Source of the DNA: Desulfobacterales bacterium
GTDB lineage: Bacteria > Desulfobacterota > Desulfobacteria > Desulfobacterales > UBA11574
Length of the DNA: 64,000 bases
Reading direction: 5' to 3'
Assembly: GCA_022340885.1 (NCBI GenBank)
Contig: JAJDND010000085.1
Location: 19,780-83,779, forward strand
Numbering within the stretch: position 1 is the stretch's first letter; the number at the start of each line of letters is the position of its first letter. Shown piece after piece: positions 5,915 to 26,129 of this stretch. A model generated the notes under the pieces. It did no database searches, was not told the DNA's origin, and saw nothing but the letters and a program-made list of their open reading frames with translations. The position numbers were made by a program, and so were the translations under genes.

Positions 5915-7291
5915 TCAGTCGTCTTCAGGTTCCAGCCCGAATCGTTTTATTTTGCGCCACAGGGAAACCCGGTCGATGCCCATGATTTTCGCGGCCCTGG
6001 TTTTATTTCCTTCACACTTATCGATAACCCATTTAATGTAATTTTTCTCCTGTTCCTCGAGGGTCGGCAGTGCTTGATCATGCCGGCGATAGGTTTCGAT
6101 GGAAAGATTGCTGATGTATTCCGGCAGTTCGTTAACGGTTATTTCCGGACCGTTGGCCAGCGCAACCGCCCGTTCGATGACATTCTCCAGTTCTCTGATA
6201 TTTCCCGGCCAGCCATACTGGCACAGCAATTCCATGCATTCTTTTTGAATCAATTGAACATCTTTGTTCATGTCCTTGCTCTTTTGAAACAAGAAGTGAT
6301 ACGCCAGAAGCGGAATATCGCCGTTCCGCTCGGTAAGTGATGGAAGTTCTATGGTGATGACATTCAACCGGTAAAACAAATCCTGTCTAAAATGCCCTTT
6401 TTCCACATCTTCCTTGAGCTCGCGATGGGTGGCCGCGATAAAGCGGACATCCACGGGAACCGGTGTTTCGCCTCCCACCGGCAAGACTTCCTTTTCCTGA
6501 ATCACGCGCAACAACTTCACCTGCATGCTCAGCGGCATATCCCCGATCTCATCCAGAAAAACCGTGCCGCCGTCGGCGGTCTTGATCAACCCTGCTTTGG
6601 CCCTTGTCGCACCGGTAAATGCATCCTTTTCATGACCGAACAGCTCATTGGCCATGAGTTCTTCCGTAAACGAACCGCAGTTAAATGCGATGAATTCTTT
6701 TTCTGAACGGGGACTGAACCGGTGGATGGATCGGGCGACCAGTTCTTTGCCGGTGCCGCTTTCACCGAGAATCAAGACGTTGATGTCCGAAGGGGCGATC
6801 TGGTGAATTGTTTTCTGAATCTCCATCATGACCTTGCTTTGTCCGACAATGGATGAAATCTTTTGCTGTTTTTTGAGGGTTTCCTTGAGCTCGATGTTCT
6901 CAAGCCGAAGACGCCGTTTTAACAGCGCCTCCTTGGTAATCTGGCGAACTTCTCCGATGTTATAGGGTTTGGCGATATAATAATAGGCACCGTCATGCAT
7001 GGCCTGAACCGATGTTTCTATCGTGGCGTAGCCGGTGATCATAATGACTTCCGTGTAAGGCTGAAGCGTTTTTGTTTTATGAAGCACCTGCATGCCGTCG
7101 ACTTTGTCCATTTTCAGATCGGTAATCACAAGATCGAAATTTTGTGACTGAAGCATGTCAATGGCCTTTTGGCCGTTGTTGACGGCAACGACATCGTAGC
7201 CGGTTTTGATCAGAATATGCTCCAGGTTTTTTCTTGCAATATCCTCGTCTTCGACAACCAGAATGATTTCATTTCTGTTTTTCACGTTCAT
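5915..7291 (-). CDS. Sigma54-dependent response regulator (NtrC/AtoC family: REC-AAA+-Fis HTH)
   Basis: Receiver [27 protein letters not shown] (GAFTGA variant), [16 protein letters not shown]-terminal [11 protein letters not shown]. Confidence 0.95.
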
Positions 7292-7296
7292 CCTTA

Positions 7297-8724
7297 TTAT
7301 AATTGGCGCTCTCCGGCCTGATGATACGGCAGGAAACAGGTGAAGGTTGTACCTTTCCCGATTTCGCTGGAAACAGATATCTTCCCGTCATGTTGTTCCA
7401 TGATGCCGTAAACAATGGAAAGCCCCAGCCCCGATCCCTTTCCGACACCTTTTGTGGTAAAAAAAGGGTCAAAAATTTTTGAGAGGATTTTTTCATCGAT
7501 GCCTTCACCCGTGTCGATCACGTGAAAAGAAAATCCATCTTGCGCCTTCTCATGTCTGGCGCTGATGGTAATCTCACCGCCGTCCTTCATGGCATGAACG
7601 GCATTGACGATAAGATTGATCAACACCCGTTCTATTCTCTGGGGTCCCAGGGTAGCCCGGATATCTTCGGGAACATCGATGTTGAAATGTATATTGTCCG
7701 GCACCTGAGATCGAACTTGGGATATGGCGCTGTCCACCAAATCTTTAAACACCACGTGTTTCAAGCTTAAAGACCGCTCCCTGGCGAACTCCAACAGAGA
7801 TCGAACGATCTCCTTGCCCCGCTCCACTTCTTTTTCAGCGCCGGTCAGCAGTTCTTTTTTATATTCCAGGTTGTTTTCCGCCAGTTCCTCGATAAGGATC
7901 TGAAGGGAGGTAGATATATTGTTGAGCGGATTGTTCAGTTCATGAGCCACGCCCGAGGTCAGTCTTCCCAGGGAAGCCAGCTTCTGCGCCTGCACGAGCT
8001 GCTTGCTTCGCTTGTTCAATTCATCGATCATATTATTTAGACTGGTCACCAGGGATTCGAATTCATCCCCGGTTTTAATTTCCGGGATATTGTTAAAATC
8101 TCCCCTTGCGATTCTGGTGATGGCGTTTTCAATGGTTTTCAACGGACGGTTGACATTGAAAATCAAAAACAACGCCACTAAAACAGAGAGGATAAAGACG
8201 GGGATCAGCGCCAACAGATGGATCGTCTTTGATTTTCCGATGAGATTTTGGGTAAATTGTCTTTCTTTTGTAACGATTTTTTCCAGCTCGCTGGTCAGAA
8301 TCCTACCCTGGGATCGAATGCGTTCGACGGTATTCGGGGGGACCATTAAATACCCTTGTTCTTGGAGTTTCAGAAGATTGGCGAGAGAATCCTTGTATGT
8401 CACCAGTTCGGTAATTCTTTCATCGAGGTTCTGGGCCAGGGTATATTTTGAGTATCGGGTCAATATATCGCGAAGGATATCCTCGGCCCGTTGGATATAG
8501 TTCAAGGCCTCGGTGATGTTCTTTTTATCAAAGGACAAAAAGTAGTTTTTCTCGTACCGGCGGGCCTCAAGAATGGTGTTTAAAAGATCGTACTTTCTTT
8601 CGATAATCTGGATCTTCTGATTGAGGATATACTGGCTGTAATAACTGCGTGCCCATATCAGGCTGCTGATGCCGATAAAAATAACAAAGGCTAAAAATAT
8701 TTTCCCTCTGATGCTGATTTTCAT
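7297..8724 (-). CDS. Membrane sensor histidine kinase (HAMP-HisKA-HATPase)
   Basis: Two TM segments, GVAHELNNPL H-box, NLIVNA, DTGEGI, PFFTTK..GSGLGL. Confidence 0.95.
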   Translation of the reverse strand: MKISIRGKIFLAFVIFIGISSLIWARSYYSQYILNQKIQIIERKYDLLNTILEARRYEKNYFLSFDKKNITEALNYIQRAEDILRDILTRYSKYTLAQNLDERITELVTYKDSLANLLKLQEQGYLMVPPNTVERIRSQGRILTSELEKIVTKERQFTQNLIGKSKTIHLLALIPVFILSVLVALFLIFNVNRPLKTIENAITRIARGDFNNIPEIKTGDEFESLVTSLNNMIDELNKRSKQLVQAQKLASLGRLTSGVAHELNNPLNNISTSLQILIEELAENNLEYKKELLTGAEKEVERGKEIVRSLLEFARERSLSLKHVVFKDLVDSAISQVRSQVPDNIHFNIDVPEDIRATLGPQRIERVLINLIVNAVHAMKDGGEITISARHEKAQDGFSFHVIDTGEGIDEKILSKIFDPFFTTKGVGKGSGLGLSIVYGIMEQHDGKISVSSEIGKGTTFTCFLPYHQAGERQL

Positions 8725-9645: not shown

Positions 9646-11460
9646 TTATTGAATGCCGTAAAAGAAATAGAGAATGGCCAACTCCACCGCTAAAAAGATG
9701 GCTGTCATAACGGCTCCCGCCTTGGCATAATCCACGGTACGATAGCCGCCGGGTCTCATCACCAGGGCATTGACCTGATGCGTCGGGAGGACGAATGTAT
9801 TGGATGCCGACAATCCCACGACCAGTGCCGCCATTCTCGGATCTCCTCCGGCCATGACCGCCATATTCATGCACAGCGGAACCAGCAGCACTGTTGCGCC
9901 GACATTGGAAATCACCAGGGTGAAAAAAGACGTCATGATGCCCACCGCCGCCAGCAAGACGATGGGTGAGGGATTACCCAGCATCCCTAGAACGAATTTT
10001 GCAATAAACGCCGCCGTACCAGTTTTCTCAAAAGCAATGCCCAAAGGGATCAGGCCAGCCAGGAGAAACACGGTCATCCAGTCCACGGCGCGATAGGCTT
10101 CATCCACCGAGAGCACGCCGGTGATGATCATGCCCAAGGCGCCGGACATCAGCGCCACGGAAAGCTGAATCTTGAAGAAAATAATTTGCGCCAGGGCCAC
10201 GGCCAGCCAGGTCACCGCCAGTTTGGCTTTTTCAGGACGCATGATTTCACCTTCAAGGGCCGTTGCAAAGGTCAGCGCCCGGGGTTGAGGCTGATTTCTT
10301 AAAATGTGAAATTTCTCCCAGGGTGCCTGGAGCAGCAAAGTATCGCCCATTTGCAGCCGGACGTGGGTCAAGTTGCTGTAAATAATTTTATTGCCGGTAA
10401 ACAGCGCCACCGGGTTTACGCCGTACATTTCCTTAAAATTAACCTGGCTCATGGTTTTGCCGATCAGTTCCGAACGGGGGGAGACCACCGTTTCCGCCAT
10501 TCCGGCATTGATGACCGCAAGGCTCTCTCCAAAAACATCCAGTCCGTTCTTGATCTCCCACCCGTATTCGTCGGCCAGCATTCTCACCATTTTTTCCTTG
10601 CCGATGACGGCGATGTCATCACCCGGAGAAATCGCATCGCTGCTTTTGGGCACAAAGGATTTTTCATTTTCCGCTGAAAAGCTGATGGCCACCACGGTCA
10701 CCAGAAACTTCGGCCGGATGGCCAGATCTTGAAGCGTCTTAGGGCCTTCAAAGGAATCCGGTATGTGTATTTCAAATGTATTTTCAAGCCCTTGGTAGGC
10801 TTCCATCAACAGCGCCGTAACCCCTTTTTCCGCTTCTCCTTCTGCCGCCGGCAAGATAAATTTTCCGAAAAAGATAAAATAAATGATGGCGCTTGAAAGC
10901 AGGCAGATGCCGATGGGGGTTTGAGTGAAAAGACCGAAGGGTTGCAGCTTTTTCCCGCCGAGAACCATCAGGTCATTCAAAAGAATCGTGGGGCTGGCCC
11001 CCACCAGCGTGATGGTACCACCGATGATGGCGCAGAACCCCATGGGCATCAGGAGTCGAGATATCGGGATCCCCATTCTTTTGGAGATCCGCTGGGTCGC
11101 CGGAAGAAACAGGGCCGCAGCGCCGATGTTCTGCATCATGCTCGATATGATGCCAACCGTACCGGATACAAGGGTAATGACCTTTTTCTCGCTGCTGCCG
11201 GCCAGCTTGATAATGGGGCCGGCCACCTTGTTCATGACCCCTGTCTTGTCAAGACCGGCGCCGATGATAATAACTGCCATGATGGAAACAACGGCATTAC
11301 TGCTCAAGCCGACAAATGCCTCTTTCGGCGAAATCAGGCCGATAAGGGGAAGCAGCGCCATCATGATAATTCCCACGACATCGACCCTTACCCATTCAAA
11401 AATAAACAGAACGACGGCAAAACCAAGTACAATCATTGTCAGGATCATCTCAGGTGTCAT
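9646..11460 (-). CDS. SLC13/DASS family permease with TrkA-C domains
   Basis: MMQNIGAAALFLP, GGTITLVGASPTI, two soluble TrkA-C-like repeats, ISNVGATVLLVP, PTHQVN..PGGY. Confidence 0.9.
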   Translation of the reverse strand: MTPEMILTMIVLGFAVVLFIFEWVRVDVVGIIMMALLPLIGLISPKEAFVGLSSNAVVSIMAVIIIGAGLDKTGVMNKVAGPIIKLAGSSEKKVITLVSGTVGIISSMMQNIGAAALFLPATQRISKRMGIPISRLLMPMGFCAIIGGTITLVGASPTILLNDLMVLGGKKLQPFGLFTQTPIGICLLSSAIIYFIFFGKFILPAAEGEAEKGVTALLMEAYQGLENTFEIHIPDSFEGPKTLQDLAIRPKFLVTVVAISFSAENEKSFVPKSSDAISPGDDIAVIGKEKMVRMLADEYGWEIKNGLDVFGESLAVINAGMAETVVSPRSELIGKTMSQVNFKEMYGVNPVALFTGNKIIYSNLTHVRLQMGDTLLLQAPWEKFHILRNQPQPRALTFATALEGEIMRPEKAKLAVTWLAVALAQIIFFKIQLSVALMSGALGMIITGVLSVDEAYRAVDWMTVFLLAGLIPLGIAFEKTGTAAFIAKFVLGMLGNPSPIVLLAAVGIMTSFFTLVISNVGATVLLVPLCMNMAVMAGGDPRMAALVVGLSASNTFVLPTHQVNALVMRPGGYRTVDYAKAGAVMTAIFLAVELAILYFFYGIQ

Positions 11461-11602: not shown

Positions 11603-12075
11603 GCCATCCTCCCTATTTTGATTTTAAAAAGAGTCATATAATGCATAGATTTAAAATTTTTGCAATATGGAATATGGTTTCCGCTCAAAAAAAAAGAAAT
11701 CCTGAAATCCACATAAAATCAGAATCTTCTGTTTCAAGCGCATGGTCAATTCTTGGGAATTAATGGCGTTATAACGTATTTTGTTTATGGCCAATAGTGA
11801 CCTATCCGCCACATCGAGTTTCATTCTGAAACAAACTTCACCTCAACCGCCCAATCCTTGTTTCAAACACGATCGGGGAAATTCAGCGGTTCGAAAAAGC
11901 GATCCTTTGATGAATATTTCGGTTCTGGAATTTTGTGTTGTCCCGAAAGATATCGATTTGAGAATTGTTTCAGTATTTTTCGATTGAATCCTTTAATAAT
12001 TTTTGCTAAGGGCAGGTGAACTATTTTTTCTATGAAGACCATTTTAAAAAAGTGAATACCGACAAAGGAGACTGC

Positions 12076-13626
12076 ATGGACTCAAAAGAAATACTCGATA
12101 AACTCGAGGAAAAGAACCGGGCAGCCATGGAAGGCGGTGGTCCTGATCGAATCCAAAAACAGCATGATTCAGGGAAGCTCACCGCCCGGGAGCGGATCGA
12201 TAAACTTCTGGATGACGGAACGTTTGTCGAGTTCGATCGATTCAAAGTGCATCGCTGTACAGACTTTGGAATGGAGAAAAAAAAGATCCCCGGCGACGGT
12301 GTCGTTACAGGGCACGGGCTGATGAATGGAAGACAAGTATTTGTATTTGCACAAGATTTTACCGCACACGGCGGCTCTCTTTCTCTGGCCCACGCTGAAA
12401 AAATATGCAAAGTTCTCCAGCATGCCATGCGAGTCGGCGCCCCGGTCATCGGACTCAACGACTCCGGCGGCGCAAGAATTCAGGAAGGGGTCATGAGTCT
12501 GGCCGGATACGGCGATATTTTCCTTTTAAATGTTCTGGCATCCGGCGTTATCCCGCAGATCAGCGCCATCATGGGGCCCTCGGCCGGAGGGGCGGTCTAT
12601 TCTCCGGCGCTGACCGACTGGGTGTTTATGGTCGAAAACACCAGTTATATGTTTATCACCGGACCCGAAGTCGTCAAGGCCGTTACCCGGGAAGACGTCA
12701 CCATGGAAGAACTCGGCGGTGCAATGGCGCACAGTGCCAAAAGTGGTGTGGCGCACTTTCCCTGTCCCGATGATGAAACCTGTATCGATAAAATTCGAGA
12801 ACTCATGTCGTTTCTGCCCCAGAACAACATGGAAGATCCGCCTCGGCAATCAACGGACGACGACCCCATGCGTCGCCAGGAAAACATTCGCGACATCGTC
12901 CCTTCGGACCCCAACAAGCCTTATGACATGCGAAATGTCATTACCGCCTGCCTGGACGACAACTATTTTTTCGAAGTACACGAACATTGGGCGCCCAGTA
13001 TCGTCGTTGGATTCGGCAGGTTTGACGGTATGGCGGTGGGGGTTGTCGCCAATCAGCCCGCGGCCATGGCCGGGGTTCTCGACATCAACGCATCCAATAA
13101 AGGTGCCCGGTTTGTCCGTTTTTGCGACTGTTTTAATATACCGCTGGTTATTTTTGAAGATGTGCCGGGGTTTATGCCCGGCACGCACCAGGAACACGGC
13201 GGAATCATCAAGCACGGCGCCAAATTGATCTATGCATTTGCCGAATCCACCGTCCCGCGCGTGACCGTCATCACCCGCAAGGCATACGGCGGCGCCTATA
13301 TTGTCATGAGCTCGAAACATCTTCGGGGGGATATCATTTTGGCTTACCCCAATGCGGAGATTGCGGTCATGGGCGCCGACGGCGCCGTAAATATCATTTG
13401 CCGCAGTCAGATAAAAAAAGCCGACGACCCTGAAGCGGAAAGACAGCGACTGATCGAGGACTATCGGGAAAAATTCTCGAATCCGTACCGGGCCGCGGAA
13501 CACGGTTATATCGATGAGGTCATCGATCCGGCGGACACCCGGCTGAAAATCATCCAGGCCCTAAGGATGCTCAGCAACAAACGAGACAGCAATCCTCCGA
13601 AAAAACATGGAAACATTCCCCTTTAA
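12076..13626 (+). CDS. mmdA: Acyl-CoA carboxyltransferase, methylmalonyl-CoA decarboxylase alpha-like (PccB family)
   Basis: GKLTARERI, DSGGARIQEG, DVPGFMPG, RKAYGGAY, C-terminal KKHGNIPL; AAGGAG RBS before ATG 12076. Confidence 0.85.
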   Translation: MDSKEILDKLEEKNRAAMEGGGPDRIQKQHDSGKLTARERIDKLLDDGTFVEFDRFKVHRCTDFGMEKKKIPGDGVVTGHGLMNGRQVFVFAQDFTAHGGSLSLAHAEKICKVLQHAMRVGAPVIGLNDSGGARIQEGVMSLAGYGDIFLLNVLASGVIPQISAIMGPSAGGAVYSPALTDWVFMVENTSYMFITGPEVVKAVTREDVTMEELGGAMAHSAKSGVAHFPCPDDETCIDKIRELMSFLPQNNMEDPPRQSTDDDPMRRQENIRDIVPSDPNKPYDMRNVITACLDDNYFFEVHEHWAPSIVVGFGRFDGMAVGVVANQPAAMAGVLDINASNKGARFVRFCDCFNIPLVIFEDVPGFMPGTHQEHGGIIKHGAKLIYAFAESTVPRVTVITRKAYGGAYIVMSSKHLRGDIILAYPNAEIAVMGADGAVNIICRSQIKKADDPEAERQRLIEDYREKFSNPYRAAEHGYIDEVIDPADTRLKIIQALRMLSNKRDSNPPKKHGNIPL

Positions 13627-13649
13627 ACCTTTAGAAAGGAGCGCGTTAC

Positions 13650-14798
13650 ATGAGCTGGGATCAAGTATTGGAACTGATTAAAAGCATCCTTTTAACGCAG
13701 ACAGGCATACCGAACCTGGATATCGGCCAGGTGATCATGATCCTCATTTCCTTTTTTTTCCTTTACCTGGCCGTCGCCAAAGAGTATGAACCGCTGCTGC
13801 TCGTTCCCATCGGCTTCGGCATATTTTTGGTGAATTTCCCCCTTGCACCGCTCATGGGATTTACCGAGCACGGCGATCCCCAACTCATCCAGGCCTTTTA
13901 TAAATACGGTGTTCAGTGGGAAATCATTCCCTGCCTGATCTTTTTGGGTCTGGGGGCAATGACGGATTTCGGGCCCCTGATCGCCAATCCGAAAACGCTG
14001 ATCATCGGCGCCGGCGCACAGCTGGGCGTATTCATCACCTATTGCGGAACCCTCTTTTTCGGCTTTACTTTAAAAGAAGCGGCTTCGGTGGGAATCATCG
14101 GCGGTGCGGACGGACCCACCACGATTTACCTGACCGCCATGCTGGCGCCGCAGCTTTTGGGCGCCAATGCTTTGGCCGCCTACTCTTACATGGCCATGGT
14201 TCCCCTCATACAGCCGCCCATCATGCGCCTGATGACCACCCCCGAACAACGGCGAATCAAAATGCGGCAGCTCAGGCCTGTTTCCGCCAAGGAAAAGCTT
14301 CTTTTTCCACTTATCGCGTCGATTTTTATAATTCTTCTGATCCCTGCCGTGGCGCCGTTGATGGGAATGTTCATGTTCGGAAATTTCATGCGCGAATGCG
14401 GCGTGGTGAAGCGTCTCAGCGAAACCGCTCAAAACGCCATGATGAACATCGTAACGATCCTCTTGGGGCTTTCGGTGGGAGCGACCATGCAGGCCGATGT
14501 TTTCTTGAGCTGGAAACCAATGCTGATTTTCGGCTTTGGGCTCTTGGACTTCATTATATGCACCTTCGGCGGCATTCTTACCGTTCACATCATGAACAAG
14601 TTTTTAAAGGAAAAGATGAACCCGCTCATCGGTTCCGCAGGGGTATCCGCAGTCCCCATGGCGGCCCGGGTTTCTCAAGTGGAAGGCCAGAAAGCCGATC
14701 CCGACAACTGGCTGATCATGCACGCCATGGGCCCCAACCTTGCCGGCGTCATCGGTTCCGCCTCCGCGGCAGGAATGTTCATTGCCATGTTCAAGTAG
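13650..14798 (+). CDS. mmdB: Na+-translocating decarboxylase beta subunit (OadB/MmdB family)
   Basis: EPLLLVPIGFG, GIIGGADGPT, YSYMAMVP, GSAGVSAVPMAARV, HAMGPN. Confidence 0.92.
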   Translation: MSWDQVLELIKSILLTQTGIPNLDIGQVIMILISFFFLYLAVAKEYEPLLLVPIGFGIFLVNFPLAPLMGFTEHGDPQLIQAFYKYGVQWEIIPCLIFLGLGAMTDFGPLIANPKTLIIGAGAQLGVFITYCGTLFFGFTLKEAASVGIIGGADGPTTIYLTAMLAPQLLGANALAAYSYMAMVPLIQPPIMRLMTTPEQRRIKMRQLRPVSAKEKLLFPLIASIFIILLIPAVAPLMGMFMFGNFMRECGVVKRLSETAQNAMMNIVTILLGLSVGATMQADVFLSWKPMLIFGFGLLDFIICTFGGILTVHIMNKFLKEKMNPLIGSAGVSAVPMAARVSQVEGQKADPDNWLIMHAMGPNLAGVIGSASAAGMFIAMFK

Positions 14799-14807
14799 GA
14801 GAGATTT

Positions 14808-15755
14808 ATGAATCGTTTAACCCATGGATTTTTCAAGAACGCCATCCGGGCGTGGCTCATTTTGGCCGGGTTGTTGGTGATCCTGGCACCTCGAACGACG
14901 GTTTATGCGGCTTTCGGCGAGGATCTGGAAAAACCCAAGCCCGAATTCACCCGTGAGGGAAATATGATCACGGCCAAGCTCATTCCCCGTGCAAAAAGCA
15001 CCAGCGTTTCGATTCACTTTACGGTTTCAGGCGGCCGACTCGTCAACGTCGAAGGCATGGATTTTCAAGAGGCTGCGCGTCCCGGGGTCGACAATAAGGA
15101 TTTCAAGTCCGAACTTTTTACTATCAAGATCGACGGGGTTCCGCCGGGCGGAGAGGCGAAGGTATCCGTCACGTCGGATTTTTTCAGCAGTTCGACCGAG
15201 TATTGGATATTCAACCGAAACTTGAAAGAACCCTGGATGAATGCCGATGCAAAGAATATCAGCCTGCCGGACATGGTCCAAGAACTTTTGGTTTCGGTAA
15301 AAGACGGCGGGCCTTTTGACAGTGACGGCGCTGTAAATGGCCGGATTACGCTATCGGGAGGACCCAAGGACTCTTTTTGGGGATATGCCCTGGGCACCCT
15401 TTTTATCCGATTCTTCGGTATTTTTCTTGTTTTGTCCATTCTTATGATCGGTATGATCCTTTCGGGCAAAATCTTTCAAATGATAGACAAAAAAAAGGCG
15501 AAAAGGGAAAAAGAGATTCAAGTGCAGCCGGAAGTCCCGGCACCCGATATCCAGCCGACCGAGGCCATTGAACCGGAACTTGCCGCTGCTGTCTGTGCAG
15601 CGCTGCATTTGCACTTTTCAGGGCGCCGGTCCGGGGCAGCGAGTTCCCCATCTATCACGCCGGCGGTATCGCCCTGGGTCCGGCAGGGCCGTGAACGGAT
15701 TATGAACGCCCGATCCATACCCACAAACCGATTTAACCGCTTACAGAATCGATGA
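14808..15755 (+). CDS. OadG/MmdD-like anchor subunit fused to an N-terminal exported domain
   Basis: Signal-like N-terminus, KDGGPFDSDGAVNGRI motif, TM (FFGIFLVLSILMIGM), ELAAAVCAAL and SPWVRQGR OadG-type tail. Confidence 0.75.
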   Translation: MNRLTHGFFKNAIRAWLILAGLLVILAPRTTVYAAFGEDLEKPKPEFTREGNMITAKLIPRAKSTSVSIHFTVSGGRLVNVEGMDFQEAARPGVDNKDFKSELFTIKIDGVPPGGEAKVSVTSDFFSSSTEYWIFNRNLKEPWMNADAKNISLPDMVQELLVSVKDGGPFDSDGAVNGRITLSGGPKDSFWGYALGTLFIRFFGIFLVLSILMIGMILSGKIFQMIDKKKAKREKEIQVQPEVPAPDIQPTEAIEPELAAAVCAALHLHFSGRRSGAASSPSITPAVSPWVRQGRERIMNARSIPTNRFNRLQNR

Positions 15756-15764
15756 GGTTTTTAT

Positions 15765-16298
15765 ATGAAATACAAAATTGCAGTCAATGACCGTACCTTT
15801 GAAGTTGAAATCAATGACATAAAGGAAGGTATTGCCCAGGTAAACGTCGACGGCCGGCCCTATGACGTTCTCATTGAAAACTACAAAGACATCGCAGCAG
15901 GATCGAAGACTTTGAGCCCGGCATTGGTACCCGCTGATGCACCGGCATCCGGGACCATCCCGTCATCACCGGCGAAACCGGCGCCGATATCACCCAAGGT
16001 GCCGAAACCGGCAACGGATACCGCTGCGGCCCCGGCGAAACCGGCAACGCCGACCCCGGCTCCGGCGCCCAAAAAAGTGCAGGCTGCAGGTGAAATCGTG
16101 GCACCGATTCCCGGACGTATCCTGGAAATCAAGGTGAACGTCGGAGATCCGGTGGCCAAGGGTCAAACCGTGGCGACCATGGAAGCGATGAAAATGGAAA
16201 ATAATATTGCCAGCACCATGGACGGTGTTGTTCAGACGATACGGGTTCAAAAAGATTCGGAAGTCGCCACCGGTGAAGTCATTATGATCATCGAATAA
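15765..16298 (+). CDS. mmdC: Biotin carboxyl carrier protein (MmdC-like)
   Basis: EAMKMEN biotinylation motif, Pro/Ala-rich linker. Confidence 0.88.
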   Translation: MKYKIAVNDRTFEVEINDIKEGIAQVNVDGRPYDVLIENYKDIAAGSKTLSPALVPADAPASGTIPSSPAKPAPISPKVPKPATDTAAAPAKPATPTPAPAPKKVQAAGEIVAPIPGRILEIKVNVGDPVAKGQTVATMEAMKMENNIASTMDGVVQTIRVQKDSEVATGEVIMIIE

Positions 16299-16336: not shown

Positions 16337-16368
16337 AAAATCCGGCCTTTTAAGAAAGGCCGGATTTT
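16337..16368. terminator. Bidirectional intrinsic terminator
   Basis: aaaatccggccttt-taag-aaaggccggatttt perfect stem between convergent genes. Confidence 0.85.
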
Positions 16369-16400: not shown

Positions 16401-16958
16401 TCAGACCATGGAATAAACATAAAGATTCCGGCGAAGACGCTCCCCCTCTTCGACTCTGCTGTCCTCTCGGTCTTCCAAGGTTTCCGAAACCACAAAAGCG
16501 ATGTCTTTTTGCTCTCTGGTGATGGATTCCAGCGCCTCTTCTGGTTCGCTGAACATCACGATATGGTGAAACGGAATCCCTTTTTCGGCGGCTGCTTCTT
16601 GAAACAAACCGGCATTTTTTTCAGACATGCTCTTAAACTCTTCACAGACCTGATTGCGGGAAGATGAAAACAGCTTGAATGTTTCGCAGGACAGCGGCGC
16701 CGTATTCAGGGCCAAAATTTCATAGGACATCCGCTGTGCCATATCAAGAGCATAGTCAATGATCTCTTTTGAAAAATCGCTTTCTCTGCCCATAACCAGC
16801 AGTTTGGTGGGCGCCTGAACTTCTTTTTGATCCGCCATTGTTTCCATGGCATATTCGGATTCGCCGGCTTCGGCAAAGGTAATCGCTTCTTGATATTTGT
16901 CCATTTTATTGCCGGTTCTGCTCATTTTTCGTTTGATTCTTCCAAAAATTCCAGCCAT
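16401..16958 (-). CDS. Hypothetical protein, USP-like fold, with FAEAGE motif
   Basis: GGAGG RBS; EAITFAEAGESEYAM; KLLVMG..IIDYALDMAQR resembles a USP N-terminus. Confidence 0.75.
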   Translation of the reverse strand: MAGIFGRIKRKMSRTGNKMDKYQEAITFAEAGESEYAMETMADQKEVQAPTKLLVMGRESDFSKEIIDYALDMAQRMSYEILALNTAPLSCETFKLFSSSRNQVCEEFKSMSEKNAGLFQEAAAEKGIPFHHIVMFSEPEEALESITREQKDIAFVVSETLEDREDSRVEEGERLRRNLYVYSMV

Positions 16959-17009
16959 TTTTACCTCCTCCTTCAGTCATCTATATTTTCATTTTCAGGT
17001 TTTTGATTT

Positions 17010-17510
17010 CTAACTGTGAACCGTGACCACTGGAACGGATAAACTTCTCTTTATATTCGCAAGGGTGGTTTTCTTTTCAAAAATATCCGCAGTCCCGCTG
17101 TCTCCGGAAGCATCGTATATAGTCAAAATAACATCCCGATGGTCGTTGACATAATCGACGATCTCTTTTTCCGGATTACCGGAACGGATCGAAAATCGAC
17201 AATGGACGCCTGCCTTTTCCGATTCTTTCAAGAGATGTTCAACCTGCTCAGAGCCTTCGGCCATCAGATCCAAGGCCGTCTCGTGCTCTCCGGCTTCCGC
17301 AAAGGCTGCCGCTGCCATGGTGCTTTCCAAAACTTTCTGTGCAATCATGGCGTTCTTCCGTATCTTTTTGATATACTTGCGATAATACTGGGGTCTGATG
17401 ACCTGGAATATGCTCAACTCGGCACTGATCCGCTTGCAAAGCGAAATCGCATAATGAAATACCTTTTGGTCGCTGGTTATACCGTCTATGGTCAATAAGA
17501 CTTTTTTCAT
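17010..17510 (-). CDS. Universal stress protein-like with FAEAGE motif
   Basis: MKKVLLTIDG, GNPEKEIV, PVVTV; internal AAAFAEAGEHETALDLM. Confidence 0.8.
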   Translation of the reverse strand: MKKVLLTIDGITSDQKVFHYAISLCKRISAELSIFQVIRPQYYRKYIKKIRKNAMIAQKVLESTMAAAAFAEAGEHETALDLMAEGSEQVEHLLKESEKAGVHCRFSIRSGNPEKEIVDYVNDHRDVILTIYDASGDSGTADIFEKKTTLANIKRSLSVPVVTVHS

Positions 17511-17547
17511 GGTGATCCCCTTTTATCCGCTGCCCATTTCAGCCTGG

Positions 17548-17724
17548 TTAAACATGCATCCTGGGACGGGTCTCTTCGCTCCGGCGAACACGGTCTTCGG
17601 CCTTTCTTCGGGACTCGCTTTCCGGGCGATCATGCATGATATCGAGCGCTGTCTCATGCTCGTTGGCCTCGGCAAAGCTAATGGCCGCCATCAATCTGTC
17701 GAAAGTTTCTTTGAATTTAAACAT
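17548..17724 (-). CDS. 58-aa protein with FAEANEHETAL motif (not in ORF track)
   Basis: GGAGG RBS; MFKFKETFDRLMAAISFAEANEHETALDIMHDRPESESRRKAEDRVRRSEETRPRMHV; motif shared with the two downstream genes. Confidence 0.8.
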   Translation of the reverse strand: MFKFKETFDRLMAAISFAEANEHETALDIMHDRPESESRRKAEDRVRRSEETRPRMHV

Positions 17725-17775
17725 GGTGGAATCCTCCGTTGCTCAATATTGTTTTTGCTGTTAATCATTGTTAGA

Positions 17776-17790
17776 GCAATTCCCGTGCCG
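17776..17790 (-). promoter_or_regulatory. Sigma54 -24/-12 promoter
   Basis: CGGCACGGGAATTGC on the minus strand, about 50 bp upstream of the 58-aa gene. Confidence 0.75.
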
Positions 17791-17868
17791 GCTTGATCAA
17801 AAACATTTATCTTATTGATATTGTTATATTTATATAGACATAAGCGGGCAAATGACATCCAAACAGAA

Positions 17869-17971
17869 TGTTGCAACATGCAACAGTTTTTCCGATGATA
17901 AAAATATTCAGTTTAATATTAGCAGGTTATACAACATTGCAAAAAAGAATGCTCCGTTGCACATTGTAACA
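17869..17971. promoter_or_regulatory. Two palindromic enhancer-type sites TGTTGCA-N3-TGCAACA
   Basis: tgttgcaacatgcaaca 17869-17885 and cgttgcacattgtaaca 17955-17971. Confidence 0.65.
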
Positions 17972-18059: not shown

Positions 18060-20063
18060 ATGCGAATATTTAAGAAGGAAAAAGGACAATTGAAGGAACT
18101 GCCGGCGGAAATCAATGAATTAAGGGAAGATGTGCAAAGCGCCAAAATGCCCGAACCGGTGGAAAAGGTCGTTTACAAAGAACTCGAGCGGCTGACCAAA
18201 ACTTCTCCTTCGAGCGCTGAATACACCATCGGAATCAACTATATCGATTATCTGTTGAGTCTGCCCTGGAACAAAATGACTAACGACAACCTCGATATTA
18301 AACGGGCGGAATCCATCCTCAACGAAGATCATTTTGGGCTGGTCAAAATAAAAGACCGCATTCTGGAGCATCTATCCGTCAGGATTTTAAAGATGTCCGG
18401 CCAACATAAGATCCTGGTGGTGGATGATGAACAAATTACCCGCCAGAACCTGGAGCATGTTTTTAAAAAAGACGGCTATCACGTCAATACCGCATCGGAT
18501 GGCCAGGAAGCGTTGGATTTTCTGGGAAAAAGCGCATTTGACGTTATCGTCACGGATCTCAAAATGGGCAAAGTCGATGGCATGACGGTTCTGGAAAGCG
18601 CCAAAGCGGTCAACCCGGGCACCGAAGTGATTATCATCACTGGGTACGCCACCGTATCCACGGCCATTGAAGCCATGAAAAAAGGATCGTATCATTATCT
18701 GACCAAGCCGCTAAAACTCAATGAAATCCGGTCGACCATCCAAAAAGCATTGTATAAAAAAACGGTTCGGTTAGAGCCCAAAGGTCCGGTGCTTTGTTTT
18801 GCCGGCCCGCCCGGAACCGGAAAAACGTCTCTGGGCATGTCCATTGCCAGAAGCCTGGAACGAAAATTTGTCCGCATATCTTTGGCCGGCATGAAGGATG
18901 AGGCAGAGATAAGAGGCCACCGCAAAAGTTATGTCGGTGCGCTGCCGGGAAGAATTATTCAGGAAATTCGACGTGCTGAAACAAAGAATCCCGTGATTAT
19001 GCTCGATGAAATCGATAAAATCGGTCGTGATTTTAAAGGAGATCCTGCCGCAGCACTTCTGGAGGTTCTCGATCCCGAGCAAAATACGCATTTTGTGGAC
19101 CATTACCTGGATGTTCCCTTTGACCTGTCCCGTGTGATGTTCATTGCCACCGCAAACGCCCTGGATCTCATACCCGGACCCCTGCTGGACCGGCTGGAGG
19201 TGATCACCTTGTTGGGATACACGGAAGAAGAAAAAGAGAAAATCGCGAGCCGGTATTTAATCCCGAAAGAAATTGAAGAAGCGGGGCTCATTGAAAACTC
19301 GCCGGTGTTCACGGAGGAAACCATCCATAAGATCATCCGGGAGTACACACGGGAAGCTGGGCTGAGAAATCTTAAGCGCCAGATTGCTTCCATCTGCCGT
19401 AAGATTGCCCGTGAAACTTTGCGCGGCGGGTATAAAAACGAACCACATATCCTAACCCCTGAAATGGTGGAGGATTTTTTAGGCCCTCGAAAATTCTATT
19501 TTGAAGTTGCGGAAGCCAAAGAAAGGGTGGGCGTGGCCACGGGGCTGGCATGGACGGAGGCCGGGGGACAGATCATCTTTATTGAAGCCGCCAAGATGAA
19601 AGGGAAAGGAAATCTGATGCTCACCGGGTCATTGGGAGACGTGATGAAAGAGTCGGCCCATGCCGCGATGAGTTACATACGAAGCCACGCCGCTGCTTTC
19701 AATATCCCGGACAGCATATTCGAAACCTATGACATCCACATCCATGTGCCTGCCGGCGCGATTCCCAAAGACGGTCCATCGGCGGGCGTCACCATCGCCA
19801 TAGCGCTTATCAGCCTGATAACGGACCGATCCTGCAAAAGAAACGTAGCATTGACCGGGGAACTGACGCTGAGCGGAAGGATCCTGCCGGTGGGCGGGGT
19901 CAAGGAAAAGGTCCTGGCCGCACACCGGGCCGGTGTGAAAGCCGTGGTCTTCCCGGCCAGAAACGATTCGGACATCAAGGATATTTCCGAGGATATTAAA
20001 AAAGATATTCAGATCATCGAAATCGATGAATTGGAGGAAGTCATCGATGTGGTGTTGAATTAG
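18060..20063 (+). CDS. lon: Lon (S16) protease lacking the N-domain, with an inserted receiver domain
   Basis: [20 protein letters not shown] ~18408-18760, [33 protein letters not shown] (Ser), GGVKEK (Lys). Confidence 0.92.
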
Positions 20064-20076: not shown

Positions 20077-20568
20077 TCAGATATACTTGAACATGGCAAA
20101 AGTCAGGTCTTTTGGGGTCGGGTTTCCGGTTTTGACAAATCCGCGGCTTTGATAGAACGCTTCCGAGGAAGGAAATTTGGGAACTTCTACTTCCATCTCA
20201 CTCATTCCCATTTGCCTGAACAAATTTTCACACTGCTCATACAAAAGCGAACCATAGCCTTTTCTGGAATAGATCATTTTGACTTGCAATGTTTTGATGA
20301 CCAGCTTCACCCCCCTTCGAACCACGAGCACACAACCGATAAGATCTTCCTCATCGTTAAGCAGCATGGCCAGATATCCCCTTTTCATCTCTTCTTGAAT
20401 TTTCTCGGGCGTTGCAAAGGCCACCAGTCTTTCGAGATCTTCCGGACGATACTCGCCCTGATGAACATCCTGAGTGTTTTGCCGGATCAGAGCTGCAATT
20501 TTCTTTGCTTCGGAATCACTCAACGGTTTTGAATTTTCCCTTAAATTGTCTATGACTTTGATTTTCAT
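20077..20568 (-). CDS. GNAT family N-acetyltransferase
   Basis: LQV..YSRKGYGSLL motif A; AFYQSRGF motif B. Confidence 0.8.
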   Translation of the reverse strand: MKIKVIDNLRENSKPLSDSEAKKIAALIRQNTQDVHQGEYRPEDLERLVAFATPEKIQEEMKRGYLAMLLNDEEDLIGCVLVVRRGVKLVIKTLQVKMIYSRKGYGSLLYEQCENLFRQMGMSEMEVEVPKFPSSEAFYQSRGFVKTGNPTPKDLTFAMFKYI

Positions 20569-20605
20569 TTGTCAGGTCTTATTTTAAAATCCGGACCGTT
20601 ATCGT

Positions 20606-23206
20606 TCATTTTGAATCGAGGATATTGCAAATGTCTTTTTCGAGCTTTTGCTGGTAATGGTTCAAAGCGGCGTTGTTGCTCATGATCATGTCGAGTTGTC
20701 GGGTATGAAGCGTCAGATAACCCAGAATTTCGAGGCGGTTTTTCATGTACTCCATGTCATGGCCTTCCACCCGCGCAATGAGATTGTCTTCTCTTATATC
20801 TACTCTGAAGCCCTGTTTTTGAAGTATTTCCGCAATTAAATGAACTCTTCCGAGTCGTCTCTGATGATCTGCCGCACCCCCCTTAAATTGGAAACTGATG
20901 TAGTTTTCCGTCAAGCGTTCGCTGACCAGTGCTTCCATGATGGAAAAATGATATCCCAGTCTCGAACTTAAGCTGCAATAATTTTTGGAGATCATAAAAT
21001 AATTACGGGCACCATAGGCCGAACGAAGACCGGGAATTAAATTCCGATTGGTCGTCGATTGAAATACAACCGATGCAAAGCCCTTGCCGTCAATCGCCGG
21101 CGGGCCTTCCCAGGCAACGGCGCTGAATCCTTTCCAGAAAGCCAGCATCGGAATGGAAGCGATATTTTCAAGCGTAACATATTTGCCGCTTATCTCTTTC
21201 TTGAATCCATCATCCAAATTCAAAATCCACCATTGCATGGGGACGTTATAATAAAGTTGCTTGCTCGATTTTTCTGAAAAATTGTGCGCCTTCCCGAAAT
21301 TAAACATCTCGATTACTGCTTTTTCATGGATAAACCGGGTGATGTCATGAAGGGTTTTGCAGTTGACCGGACGAAAGTAAGGAGAGTCCGGGTCGAGCAG
21401 GTTTAAAGGGATAATCAGGCGGCTCACCCGTTTCAATGTTTCATAGACCGGGCTGCCTTGCATAAGATTCATCTTTGGTCCGGATTTTGTCGATAATGAC
21501 TTTATCTCACCTTTATAAATGGTTAAGGTATCGGCATCGACAGTAACCTGTTCACCATGATTCAGTCGATCCATAGCACCGGGTACGCCGAAGAGCGCGG
21601 GAACACCGAACTCTCTAGCTACACTGGCGAGATGTCCGGCAAAACCGCCCTGCTCCGTTATCACGGCAGCCGATCTGTTTAACAGGGAAGACCATATGGG
21701 GAGCGCCTGACGCGCAACCATAATCGCCCCCTGGGGAAACTGCAAAAGATCCATGGTCTTGTCCACCAGGAAAACCTTCCCGCTGGCCGCGCCCGGACTT
21801 GCGGTCACGCCTTGTCCTGCAATAACGGCATTATGGGATCTCGTAAATTCAGGCTCGGGGAGGTCCGTTTTCAACGGCTTTATTTGCTTCAAAGGCCGGC
21901 ACTGCAGGATGTAAATTGCATCGTCCTTGTCAACAGCCCACTCGATGTCCTGGGGTATCGCATAATATTCTTCAATCCTGGCCGCAAGTTCCGACAACTC
22001 CAATGCCTTTTTATCATCAATGGAGGGCAGATCCATTTGATCTCCGGTTAACCCCGTTTGGCAGACCCCTTCTTCGGGCAGGCATACAAATTTTATTTTT
22101 TTGGTGTTTACTTCTTTACGAATAATTTTTCCGGCAGGTTTTTTTGAAACGACAAAAAGATCATAGGCATCACTGCCGTCGACCACGGACTTGGGCAAAC
22201 CCCATGCGGAATTGATAAACATCGCGTCATCGGCAATATCAACGGGATTCCGGGTATAGGCGACGCCGCCTGCCACGGCGTCCACCATGCGCAGGCACCC
22301 CACGCACATGGCAATATCTTCATCCTTAATCCCCCTGTTCAACCGGTATGTCACAGCCTGAAACGAGTATTTGCTTGCCAGAATCTCCTTATATGCCTGA
22401 AAGATGCTGTCAAAGCCGACGTTCAGCTCGCTCCGGTACTGGCCGGCAAATGAGCTCTCCGGCATATCTTCTCCCAGGGCGCTGCTTCTTAATGCCAAAG
22501 CGACTTTTCCTTTAGCGTCCGATTCGAGTCTGGCATAGGCCCGCCTGACGGCTTCGGCCACATCGTCGGGTATTCTGGATCGGATAATAAGCTGCTGGAT
22601 TTTTGAGCTCAGGGCATAACGTCTTTCGACATTATCGCCTTCATCGGATTGAAAAAGTCGGTCAATTTCCATCTGCAAGTCGTTATCCTGGATAACCCTT
22701 TCACAGGCCGCCGCAGTAATGACAAATCCTTCTGGGATTTTGATCTGAAGTCTATTTTTAATTTCACCGAGGTTGGCCATCTTACTGCCGACAACATCCC
22801 TCATCTCCATACTTACGGCGTCAATGGGGATAACAAGCCTTTTATCTTTCATCGATTTCTTCTGCGAAAGTAATTCGTCCATCTTTTGCCGGATTTCGTT
22901 AAACCGTTTATCGAGTTCCCCGTATCTGCCTTTGGAGAGGTTTCCGATATGTTTTATCATATTAAAAACATTGACGGAAACCGCCGTACAGCTTGCCCGG
23001 ACAAAGGCCATGCCAAAAGGCTGTCCGCTCTCAAGGACCCGTTCCATATCGGCCATAATTTCAAGCGCCCTGTTATTGGCATTCAGCAGAAGTTTGAAAC
23101 TGTGATACCGTTCCTTGAACTCAATGCGAAGCTGTTCGACATCACCGGCTGCAGGTTCCGGCTTTTTAATAAAAAGCTTTTTAAAATGGTTCAACAGCGC
23201 GCTCAT
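20606..23206 (-). CDS. PEP-synthase/PPDK-like protein (nucleotide-binding plus phospho-His domain, no PEP-binding barrel)
   Basis: VGSKMANLGE, LRSSALGED..SFAGQY, PQDIEW..ILQCRPL, ITEQGGFAGHLASVAREFGVP. Confidence 0.85.
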   Translation of the reverse strand: MSALLNHFKKLFIKKPEPAAGDVEQLRIEFKERYHSFKLLLNANNRALEIMADMERVLESGQPFGMAFVRASCTAVSVNVFNMIKHIGNLSKGRYGELDKRFNEIRQKMDELLSQKKSMKDKRLVIPIDAVSMEMRDVVGSKMANLGEIKNRLQIKIPEGFVITAAACERVIQDNDLQMEIDRLFQSDEGDNVERRYALSSKIQQLIIRSRIPDDVAEAVRRAYARLESDAKGKVALALRSSALGEDMPESSFAGQYRSELNVGFDSIFQAYKEILASKYSFQAVTYRLNRGIKDEDIAMCVGCLRMVDAVAGGVAYTRNPVDIADDAMFINSAWGLPKSVVDGSDAYDLFVVSKKPAGKIIRKEVNTKKIKFVCLPEEGVCQTGLTGDQMDLPSIDDKKALELSELAARIEEYYAIPQDIEWAVDKDDAIYILQCRPLKQIKPLKTDLPEPEFTRSHNAVIAGQGVTASPGAASGKVFLVDKTMDLLQFPQGAIMVARQALPIWSSLLNRSAAVITEQGGFAGHLASVAREFGVPALFGVPGAMDRLNHGEQVTVDADTLTIYKGEIKSLSTKSGPKMNLMQGSPVYETLKRVSRLIIPLNLLDPDSPYFRPVNCKTLHDITRFIHEKAVIEMFNFGKAHNFSEKSSKQLYYNVPMQWWILNLDDGFKKEISGKYVTLENIASIPMLAFWKGFSAVAWEGPPAIDGKGFASVVFQSTTNRNLIPGLRSAYGARNYFMISKNYCSLSSRLGYHFSIMEALVSERLTENYISFQFKGGAADHQRRLGRVHLIAEILQKQGFRVDIREDNLIARVEGHDMEYMKNRLEILGYLTLHTRQLDMIMSNNAALNHYQQKLEKDICNILDSK

Positions 23207-23315
23207 AATTTTATGTTCTCAGGTGTCAAATGGATACAGGACATCTGAACAATAGGTCGAAAGCAAGGCGGGGCCGAGGCTGCCGCCGACCTTTTCAACG
23301 GATGAATTTTAACCG

Positions 23316-24002
23316 CTAATGTTCCAGTTTCAGACCCCATCCTTCGAATATACACATGACGGCAAAACCATACCAAAGTGTATAAATAACATAAAGTGCC
23401 AAAGAAATTAAGACAATAAAGGTTCGATCGGATATTTTCTCAGGCTCGATCCGGTAGTAGTTGTAAGACGTCTCCACTGCTTTTTTGACAACCAGGTCGA
23501 CCGTTTCAGCTTCCTTGAACTGTTTTTGCTTTTTTAAAACCTTATCCATTGCACCAAGCGCCTGCCACCAGTTAAAGAGGACCTGTCTTTCGTTGTACCC
23601 GTATTTTGACAAAACCGCCTTTCCGTCATTCATATACATTCGATCCGCATCCCCAAGGCAGTTGGCAAGAATTTTTCCCAGATCCCCCTCAACTTTCAAC
23701 CGGCTCCCGGACACATTGACCAAAGCGCCGCCTTTCATAAACAAAGCGGCTGTCTGTTGCGCCTGACGCTCGTCCCCCATGTCAATGCTCACATTGACCG
23801 ATCTCCCGTAATACGTGTCTGCCGTCGCTTTGACCTTCGGAATATAATAAGCCGACCCCTTTGAAATGGAATTGTACAGGTTATCTAAATATTTCAAACC
23901 GTTCTGCCCCTTAAACACCGGGGAAAATATGATAATCAATATGGCAGTAAATCCGATCAACAACCCGAAGCCAATGTAAAGTTCTTTCCTGTTCTCGTTC
24001 AT
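23316..24002 (-). CDS. Membrane protein, partner of TauE/SafE transporter
   Basis: N- and C-terminal TM segments; ATGA overlap with the upstream gene. Confidence 0.75.
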   Translation of the reverse strand: MNENRKELYIGFGLLIGFTAILIIIFSPVFKGQNGLKYLDNLYNSISKGSAYYIPKVKATADTYYGRSVNVSIDMGDERQAQQTAALFMKGGALVNVSGSRLKVEGDLGKILANCLGDADRMYMNDGKAVLSKYGYNERQVLFNWWQALGAMDKVLKKQKQFKEAETVDLVVKKAVETSYNYYRIEPEKISDRTFIVLISLALYVIYTLWYGFAVMCIFEGWGLKLEH

Positions 24003-25297: not shown

Positions 25298-25746
25298 GTC
25301 GATATCGCTCCTTTTTTTTGTTCCGCCCGCTTGAAATTTCCGAGTTTTTCAATTTTTTGTTTTTGTATGGTTCTCCTCTTAAAAGCATCCTGCAGTTTGC
25401 AAAAAAGCTCGTCAAAATCCGCAGGTTTCATAAGATAGTCAAAAGCGCCCGATTCCATGCCTTCGATGGCCGCTTCGATACTGGCGTGGCCGGTTAACAT
25501 GATGACTTCCATCAGAGGATCGATTCTCTTGATCTCTTTTAGCGCGTTTATTCCGCCGATACCCGGCATTCTGACATCCAGCACAACCACGTCTGCCGGT
25601 TGCCTTTTCAAATAATCGAGCGCCGCTTCTCCGCTTCCGACTCCCGCAACATCCATGCCGCGTTTTCTCATTCGCTTCATCAGCGTTTCTAAGAAATCGG
25701 TTTCGTCATCCACAAAAAGAACTTTCAAGGCTTCCAATTTCATCAC
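25294..25746 (-). CDS. Single-domain response regulator
   Basis: VDDE, LDVRMP, LTGH, MKP. Confidence 0.92.
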   Translation of the reverse strand: MMKLEALKVLFVDDETDFLETLMKRMRKRGMDVAGVGSGEAALDYLKRQPADVVVLDVRMPGIGGINALKEIKRIDPLMEVIMLTGHASIEAAIEGMESGAFDYLMKPADFDELFCKLQDAFKRRTIQKQKIEKLGNFKRAEQKKGAIST

Positions 25747-26129
25747 CTCCCGAATGACACAACGTCTTTTATTTTTGCAATGAGTTCATCAAAATCACAG
25801 GGTTTCATCAGATAATCCGAAGCACCGAGCCCGATACCGTCTCTGGCCGTTTCTTCTGATCCGTGACCTGTGAGCATAATTACCGGTAGATCCGGAACGA
25901 TGTTTTTAAAAATTTTTAAAATTTCGATACCGTCCATGTCTTCCATTTTCAGATCCAGAACCACAGCGTCAAAATCGGTCCGCCTCAATGCCTGCAACGC
26001 CTCCCTGCCGCTGTAAGCTTTGGTGACGTCGATGTTCCGCCTGGACATTCTTTTGGAAATGACGTCCACGAATCCTTTTTCATCATCGACCAGAAGAACC
26101 CTCAGTGGTTTGCTTTTGTTTTCAAACAT
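25743..26129 (-). CDS. Single-domain response regulator
   Basis: VDDE, LDLKME, LTGH, MKP. Confidence 0.92.
   Translation of the reverse strand: MFENKSKPLRVLLVDDEKGFVDVISKRMSRRNIDVTKAYSGREALQALRRTDFDAVVLDLKMEDMDGIEILKIFKNIVPDLPVIMLTGHGSEETARDGIGLGASDYLMKPCDFDELIAKIKDVVSFGR

Follow-up and report, generated by a model that had tools for sequence, protein, structure and literature searches.

The stretch of DNA considered here, 64,000 nucleotides (nt) from a Desulfobacterales bacterium (assembly GCA_022340885.1, contig JAJDND010000085.1, positions 19,780 to 83,779; called the window below), raises the question of why three consecutive minus-strand genes, divergent from the gene of a Lon protease that contains a receiver domain (REC-Lon), should each encode one copy of the same short motif, and of what this motif might do in its host proteins. 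The features on which the question turns are listed here, with protein lengths in amino acids (aa).

16401..16958, minus strand: 185-aa protein with the fold of universal stress proteins (USPs); module at 16806-16919, as a flexible N-terminal extension
17010..17510, minus strand: 166-aa universal stress protein; module at 17232-17345, inserted after the second strand
17548..17724, minus strand: 58-aa small protein; amphipathic helix at the N-terminus and hairpin module (together at about 17605-17718), basic linker, conserved C-terminal tail (R-P-x-M/L-R/H-x)
18060..20063, plus strand: REC-Lon; receiver (aa 118-227) inserted before the AAA+ module, no N-terminal substrate domain; divergent from the three-gene operon

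The answer reached in this work is that the module is real, portable, under selection, predicted to form a hairpin and genomically tied to REC-Lon, and that it is probably, judging from sequence comparison, a protein-docking handle in a stress system built around the receiver-fused Lon. That the module binds at all, what it binds and which way control runs are matters that we infer.

Each of the three open reading frames (ORFs) contains one copy of a module of about 30 residues with the core A-x-x-F-A-E-A-G-E-x-E-T-A. A first-pass annotation of this DNA had pointed out that three consecutive proteins have a motif in common, and the strings which it quoted are found exactly, at residues 13-30 of the 58-aa protein, 64-81 of the 166-aa protein and 23-40 of the 185-aa protein. 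In a 38-residue alignment of the three window copies with two others of the same genome, the A, F-A-E-A and A positions are invariant. The sharing of the motif is not a product of chance, because in a six-frame scan of the whole 3.55-Mb assembly the extended pattern is confined to these three ORFs. For the bare hexamer F-A-E-A-[GN]-E the assembly gives five matches: in the three window ORFs, in an 830-aa ORF on contig C165, and in one unrelated place on contig C215. A profile search of the genome returns six module matches, which are the three in the window, the C165 ORF, and two receiver proteins about 7 kb past the window end.

The same annotation had taken the three proteins to be otherwise dissimilar, which fails for the two longer ones, both of which have the USP fold. 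The 166-aa protein belongs to the USP family by its match to the Pfam Usp model (PF00582; 37.6 bits against a cut-off of 24, E 4e-9), while the 185-aa protein matches the same model below the cut-off (13.9 bits, E 0.08) and is placed in the fold by Foldseek, in which the top matches of its domain are USPs (best E 2.6e-4, probability 1.0). The placement of the module differs between these two hosts, after strand 2 in the former and ahead of the domain in the latter.

The 58-aa ORF is a genuine gene. It has 159 clusters of relatives, with a length of exactly 58 aa in 87 of the 120 that are listed; the median ratio of nonsynonymous to synonymous substitution rates (dN/dS) is 0.13 (27 usable estimates among 32 close orthologues); a GGAGGA sequence lies 8 nt upstream of the ATG; and the gene is covered by contigs from RNA libraries. 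Contigs of this kind, from three studies, cover parts of the operon and attest presence in the libraries rather than proving a transcript; two of them, spanning 17207-17785 and 17244-17752, bridge the 166-aa and 58-aa genes. The protein has no Pfam or NCBIfam match at E <= 1. It consists of the hairpin, a basic linker and a conserved C-terminal tail, so that the adaptor-like character suggested for it in the first-pass annotation is borne out as regards layout. A conserved basic tail, of the form R-P-x-L/M-R-x or R-x-R-x-Y-R-x, is found at the C-terminus of the small module proteins encoded beside REC-Lon, and in the window it is encoded at 17548-17570.

The module extends well beyond this locus. 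A profile built from five copies and searched against 1.84 billion representative proteins matches 1022 representative clusters at E <= 1e-3, and 88 at E <= 1e-10. Among the best 150 of the 1022, one copy is present in 39, two in 93, three in 17 and four in 1, with variable linkers between the copies of the 111 proteins that have two to four. The architectures of the same 150 comprise copies ahead of the same USP-like domain as in the 185-aa protein (15) or of a relative of the 166-aa USP (20), copies with a C-terminal G-L-x-G...Y-G element (31), copies with a basic tail ending R-x-x-hydrophobic-R (17), other small proteins (61) and other hosts (6). A consensus derived from 605 distinct copies in 370 proteins, with positions counted from the core F(0), shows conservation of A(-3) at 87%, F(0) at 88%, A(+1) and E(+2) at 90%, A(+3) at 77%, G(+4) at 76%, E(+5) at 69% and A(+9) at 91%, and a second hydrophobic stripe is formed by positions -12, -9, -5 and -2. 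The portability that had been proposed for the motif is confirmed by its hosts, which range from small proteins and two USP families to receiver domains, a membrane protein and an epimerase-GcvH fusion; in the loci that were fetched, it stands at the C-terminal end of two single-domain receiver families and at the head of a small membrane protein. Members are named in the databases as 'hypothetical protein', 'universal stress protein', 'response regulator' and, once, 'tetratricopeptide repeat protein', and their taxon labels include Thermodesulfobacteriota, Nitrospirota, Deferribacteres and one Euryarchaeota metagenome-assembled genome. Of 401 genomes of the phylum that were sampled for comparison, 58 have the module, and these belong to 40 of 255 genera; 44 of the 58 have at least two matches, mostly within a few kb of each other, and operons with two to four module-bearing proteins recur among the loci.

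The copies elsewhere in this genome can be described separately. About 7 kb past the window end (C186:90292-91288; L002:6293-7271, minus strand), two adjacent single-domain receivers each end in the module, among kinases, further receivers and a 537-aa membrane protein; a pair of this type recurs in many genomes behind a two-copy small protein, and the two neighbouring genes form one fused chain in the proteins P0323 and P0330. The 830-aa epimerase/GcvH-domain ORF on C165 (L001:720-3212) has one copy at 2232-2345. On either side of it lies a direct repeat of 78 nt (74% identity, 156 nt from start to start), which looks as though a duplication of the preceding helix had accompanied the insertion of the module; repeats of this kind flank none of the three window copies. 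The nearest relative of the C165 copy at the DNA level is that of a receiver protein, from which it differs mostly at synonymous sites. A further family of about 100 aa (L035:11787-12095 and relatives) combines two module copies with a conserved C-terminal V-G-L-x-G-V-R-x-x-Y-G element, which is sometimes doubled.

Structure prediction with AlphaFold2 (AF2) suggests that the module is a solitary hairpin resembling those of tetratricopeptide repeats (TPRs), in which an amphipathic helix is followed by a G-E-x-E turn and a second helix that is short. In the model of the 185-aa protein, the USP domain is predicted with a local confidence score (pLDDT) of about 90, and the N-terminal part as a helix at 5-30, a turn, and a helix at 34-42, with a pLDDT of 47-56 and no confident packing on the domain. 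In a natural two-copy protein (mean pLDDT 83.9) each of the two hairpins, H2-20/H24-31 and H35-59/H63-71, is confident; the predicted template modelling score (pTM) of the whole is 0.42, and no confident packing of one hairpin on the other is seen. The models thus have the two antiparallel helices and tight turn of a TPR, but the other attributes of that family are lacking: the best scores of 12 relatives, 17.8 bits for TPR_4 and 20.8 for TPR_12, are below the gathering cut-offs of 27 and 30.1, and there is no contiguous tandem superhelical array, since 39 of the 150 proteins are single-copy and the others have variable linkers, with the pTM of 0.42 for the two-copy case. The matches of the 12 relatives, to TPR, FimV-C-terminal and EIIA-Lac models, are all below threshold. 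A Foldseek search with the two-copy model gives no match at E <= 1e-3, its weak rows being mostly TPR proteins; a profile search of PDB sequences gives a single match at chance level (E 1.9); the ESM Atlas gives matches only to unnamed clusters of the protein's own kind; and a full-text literature search with the motif strings gives one unrelated match and nothing else. The module is undescribed by any Pfam, NCBIfam or PDB entry.

The Lon protease to which the operon is divergent contains the Lon_C, AAA, Lon_lid and Response_reg models, the last at aa 118-227, and no Lon N-domain model is matched in the Pfam and NCBIfam scans, which together with the gene positions agrees with the earlier description of an operon divergent from an N-domain-less Lon with a receiver. 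Residues D122, D166, K216, S574 and K617 and the Walker A motif are invariant across 47 orthologues, so that the acidic pocket of the receiver with its phospho-acceptor, the receiver lysine and the catalytic serine and lysine of the protease are all conserved. Full-length REC-Lon, which separates cleanly from ordinary Lon, is encoded at 46 loci in 45 of the 401 genomes, and 45 of these loci were examined, the locus of genome G041 being left out. A small module ORF (<=100 aa) is present within 1 kb of REC-Lon at 22 of the 45 loci, upstream and divergent in 21 of these, and within 4 kb at 27; a USP-like gene lies within 4 kb at 33, and in 13 of these cases it has the module. The small protein of the 58-aa type is the commonest immediate neighbour of REC-Lon. 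In 32 loci closely related to that of the window, the small gene and the 166-aa gene are found in all 32, the 185-aa gene in 30 and REC-Lon in 29, the misses being at contig ends. Of 20 module clusters chosen solely for their clustered matches, 17 have a histidine kinase in the vicinity and 16 an anion transporter (TauE, CitMHS or Na_sulph_symp), and sigma-54 activators and receivers are frequent there.

The window also contains three genes of the kinds encoded in such neighbourhoods.

5915..7291, minus strand: NtrC-type sigma-54 activator with the architecture REC-Sigma54_activat-HTH_8; receiver 51% identical to the REC-Lon receiver
7297..8724, minus strand: histidine kinase with the architecture HAMP-HisKA-HATPase
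9646..11460, minus strand: CitMHS/TrkA-C anion permease, directly after the 185-aa gene in 20 of 32 close loci; here a decarboxylase operon lies between

The activator is this genome's best relative of the activators encoded beside REC-Lon elsewhere, and in one locus (L035) the kinase and activator genes are contiguous with the operon.

Since the glutamate E(+2) is kept at 90% on the surface of the hairpin and a hydrophobic stripe is left free, the module would have a partner rather than being a mere element of a fold. The conserved surface glutamate, the stripe, the loose tethering, the multi-copy arrays and the presence of several handle genes in one operon together argue for a docking handle and not for a structural part of each host. 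In the mechanism that we propose, a single sigma-54-type operon encodes three handle-bearing proteins, the 58-aa protein, which hardly goes beyond its handle and a basic tail, and the two USP-fold proteins, and belongs to a stress module consisting of kinase, sigma-54 activator, REC-Lon, USPs and anion permease, of the type of DVU3298-3305 in Desulfovibrio vulgaris. Pairing of the handles, hairpin to hairpin, may hold the co-encoded proteins together. The 58-aa protein, which is read as an adaptor or gate for REC-Lon because of its hairpin, basic linker and conserved tail and because it is the commonest neighbour of that protease, would bridge or gate the handle set to REC-Lon through the tail, standing in as an adaptor or anti-adaptor for the missing Lon N-domain, and phosphorylation of the two twin receivers could couple transcription of the operon with turnover of its products. 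To this combination of handle pairing, a 58-aa REC-Lon adaptor or anti-adaptor, and coupling by phosphorylation we assign a probability of roughly 0.4.

Several points weigh against this mechanism. A motif scan across the phylum had been proposed as a check on the link to the Lon, and its outcome is divided: a genomic tie exists in many families, but the module is not a tag dedicated to REC-Lon. Module and REC-Lon occur together in 29 of the 401 genomes, the module alone in 29, REC-Lon alone in 16 and neither in 327, so that REC-Lon is absent from 29 of the 58 module-bearing genomes; and at 16 of the 45 REC-Lon loci, mostly GC-rich and Desulfovibrio-like, no module ORF is found at E < 0.05 in the stretch examined, although in one of them (L082) a 58-aa module ORF lies 5.3 kb upstream, outside that stretch. 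Most of the 16 retain a longer USP-like gene followed by a TauE permease. Because of these two counts, the module is neither necessary nor specific for REC-Lon. The co-occurrence counts moreover overstate their support, because related genomes are not independent, and ORF calling in the fetched loci followed a plain longest-ORF rule. The two-copy AF2 model, with its pTM of 0.42, gives no confident packing of one handle on the other, and the likeness of the basic tail to the short C-terminal peptides by which some protease adaptors are tethered to their unfoldase is no more than a lead.

The alternative that survives best is that the handle binds receiver domains, in which case the small and USP proteins would be anti-adaptor-like and would dock on the receivers of REC-Lon and of its twin NtrC-type activator, and on single-domain regulators the handle would fold back on, or dimerize, its own receiver. 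We consider this doubtful, although a good deal of the neighbourhood evidence is in line with it: the handle is fused directly after helix 5 in two receiver families, small handle genes adjoin REC-Lon, handle clusters without REC-Lon adjoin NtrC-type regulators whose receivers are 46-50% identical to that of the Lon, and 18 of the 20 loci examined have a receiver-domain protein close to the handle cluster. That proximity, however, carries little weight when receivers are very common in these genomes, and the multi-copy arrays on USP proteins are not obviously accounted for.

If the handle were instead a degron read by REC-Lon, as in the strongest form of the proposal made in the first-pass annotation, its carriers would be degraded and the small protein would act as a competing decoy. 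Adjacency to REC-Lon across many families, the lack of the usual substrate-binding N-domain and the conservation of the catalytic residues are all compatible with such a role, which is nevertheless distinctly improbable, given that half of the handle-bearing genomes have no REC-Lon, that the small protein is under purifying selection over its whole length (the median dN/dS of 0.13 given above), and that arrays of two to four copies are more like a binding module than a degradation tag.

It is somewhat more improbable again that the hairpin has no shared partner and is a generic TPR-like capping or solubility element, spread by duplication within a lineage, whose recurrent neighbourhoods reflect shared ancestry only. 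The sub-threshold TPR matches, the low AF2 confidence for any packing and the relatedness of the compared genomes are in line with such an element; against it stand a near-invariant core, with a surface glutamate, in 605 copies on unrelated hosts, the independent insertions at N-termini, at C-termini and inside domains, and the mostly synonymous differences between the module in two host genes of this genome.

Least probable of all is that the handle docks regulators on the adjacent anion transporters (TauE, CitMHS/TrkA-C or DASS), or that its acidic turn is a binding site for a cation or small ligand. In favour of this, 16 of the 20 handle clusters have an anion transporter no more than 4-5 kb away, a small handle-plus-membrane protein directly precedes a TauE gene in one of its two loci (L038), and TeaD, a USP relative of solved structure, is by the title of that structure encoded together with a transporter, but the transporter families differ and have no soluble domain in common, and the turn histidine is present in only 36% of copies.

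The divergent promoter region between the small gene and REC-Lon has the following features.

17776..17790, minus strand: sigma-54-type promoter-like site, GGCAC-N5-TTGC (TGGCAC-N5-TTGC with one mismatch); the ATG of the small gene follows after 52 nt
17869..17885, no strand: palindrome TGTTGCA-N3-TGCAACA, first candidate site for an enhancer-binding protein, in the divergent promoter region
17955..17971, no strand: second copy of the palindrome, two mismatches, 86 bp from the first

Among 26 distant loci, only 3 have a sigma-54-like site ahead of the small gene, which is thus not a general feature. The RNA-library contigs end about 20 nt past the start expected from the window's site, which fixes no transcription start, and none of them covers 17786-17940. 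Over the whole window, sigma-54-like sites are in excess: there are 12 with at most one mismatch, where 4.3 would be expected and none of 100 shuffles gave more than 10; examples on the minus strand are at 31714, 35715, 43967, 46115, 58727, 60963 and 63906. The palindrome, with at most two mismatches, is present in the divergent promoter zone of 29 of the 45 REC-Lon loci, twice in 20 of these, and 19 of the 20 pairs are 76-90 bp apart; the promoter zone, which makes up 33,563 of 476,881 bases, accounts for 49 of 82 palindrome matches. The exact palindrome occurs in only three other loci, and it is the looser form that is enriched. The paired palindromes are candidate binding sites, by sequence, of an activator of the DVU3305 type.

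The surroundings of the operon and REC-Lon consist of further recognizable groups. Between the 185-aa gene and the CitMHS permease, four plus-strand genes at 12016-16298 (536, 382, 315 and 177 aa) look, judging from their translations, like a decarboxylase operon with carboxyltransferase, membrane beta-subunit and biotin-carrier components, which meets the three-gene operon convergently at the following element.

16337..16368, no strand: terminator-like palindromic hairpin between the convergent decarboxylase and three-gene operons

The downstream flank varies among the 32 close loci, being the decarboxylase operon as here or the CitMHS permease, and because the permease directly follows the 185-aa gene in 20 of them, the decarboxylase operon looks like an insertion or rearrangement. 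Past REC-Lon, at 20077-27927, genes for a GNAT acetyltransferase, a PPDK_N/PEP-utilizer protein, a TauE permease, a single-domain receiver and a dCache kinase look like a second transporter-plus-signalling group adjoining the first.

To our knowledge, Lon adaptors are rare. A short invariant handle, found on more than 1000 protein clusters and adjoining the receiver-fused Lon in many families, offers a concrete hypothesis for how an N-domain-less, receiver-gated Lon could choose its substrates in a system of the DVU3303 type, which in D. vulgaris has a fitness phenotype under chlorate stress according to the passages available. Taken further, the hairpin might be the address label of a modular proteolytic circuit, in which the Lon would read the handles through the 58-aa adaptor and one phosphorylation signal would both switch the operon on and set the lifetime of its products. 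We regard this extension as unlikely; if it is true, the label is present on USP proteins, single-domain response regulators and small proteins, and the circuit would be a Lon counterpart of the adaptor and anti-adaptor networks of ClpXP. Apart from Lon, the module merits its own family entry, by which many small proteins now called 'hypothetical' would be annotated and the extensions on USP and receiver proteins of sulfate-reducer-type bacteria explained.

The module and its setting can be compared with four known systems. The first is that of the protease adaptors and anti-adaptors SspB, RssB and IraP/IraM/IraD, which the arrangement described here resembles in layout: a binding element, a flexible linker and a conserved tail, short and C-terminal, make up a small protein, and this protein is paired with an AAA+ protease and a receiver domain. 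It differs from them in that there is no sequence relation and in that the putative partner is Lon and not ClpXP.

The second comparison is with TPR-type hairpins (Pfam TPR_4, TPR_12 and TPR_14, and the FimV C-terminal TPR-like model TIGR03504), with which the module shares a helix-turn-helix of similar length, small residues at the helix crossing, an aromatic residue nine positions ahead of the conserved alanine, weak model matches, and the name 'TPR protein' given to one member by NCBI. In contrast to TPRs, all of its scores are under the curated cut-offs, its second helix is short, its copies stand alone or have variable linkers of 10-30 residues between them instead of being contiguously stacked, and its core F-A-E-A-G-E is far more invariant than the TPR consensus.

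The third is TeaD, the USP of the TeaABC TRAP transporter (PDB 3hgm), to which the domain of the 185-aa protein is matched by Foldseek with E 4.9e-4. By the title of that structure, TeaD is encoded with its transporter, and in the relatives of this locus the 185-aa gene stands directly before the permease gene, whereas the 185-aa protein has the extra hairpin and an ATP-binding glycine motif is not evident on reading its translation.

The fourth is the system of D. vulgaris Hildenborough that consists of the receiver-Lon DVU3303, the kinase DVU3304 and the sigma-54 activator DVU3305, as described in the passages available from Rajeev 2011 (PMC3333781). According to the same source, the system acts on the operon upstream of it, DVU3302-3298, whose products are membrane and hypothetical proteins that in some cases have UspA-type domains, and several stresses induce this operon; high pH, heat and chlorate are among the stresses reported for D. 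vulgaris; the passages available from Kazakov 2015 (PMC4641369) list the DVU3302-3298 regulon likewise. In those from Trotter 2023 (PMC10102598), the pairwise cofitness of DVU3303-3305 exceeds 0.9, and the chlorate phenotype of D. vulgaris is linked to the anion transporter DVU3299. The window matches this description, as the papers give it, in having an N-domain-less receiver-fused Lon, a partner kinase and an NtrC-type sigma-54 activator, together with an anion transporter and USP-type proteins encoded divergently from the Lon. It differs in that the kinase and activator are 10 kb away behind the inserted decarboxylase operon. The transporter directly after the three genes in the window's relatives is CitMHS/TrkA-C, and a TauE gene lies about 4 kb past REC-Lon; for DVU3299 the passages name no transporter family. 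The hairpin module sets the two apart as well: the passages of these papers on DVU3298-3305 make no mention of it, and the Desulfovibrio-like loci in the sample, unlike the window, are without it. The gene system itself is already known, because it is described in the D. vulgaris papers; what the window adds to it is a new, unannotated form of TPR-like hairpin, which probably serves as a portable handle in this stress system.

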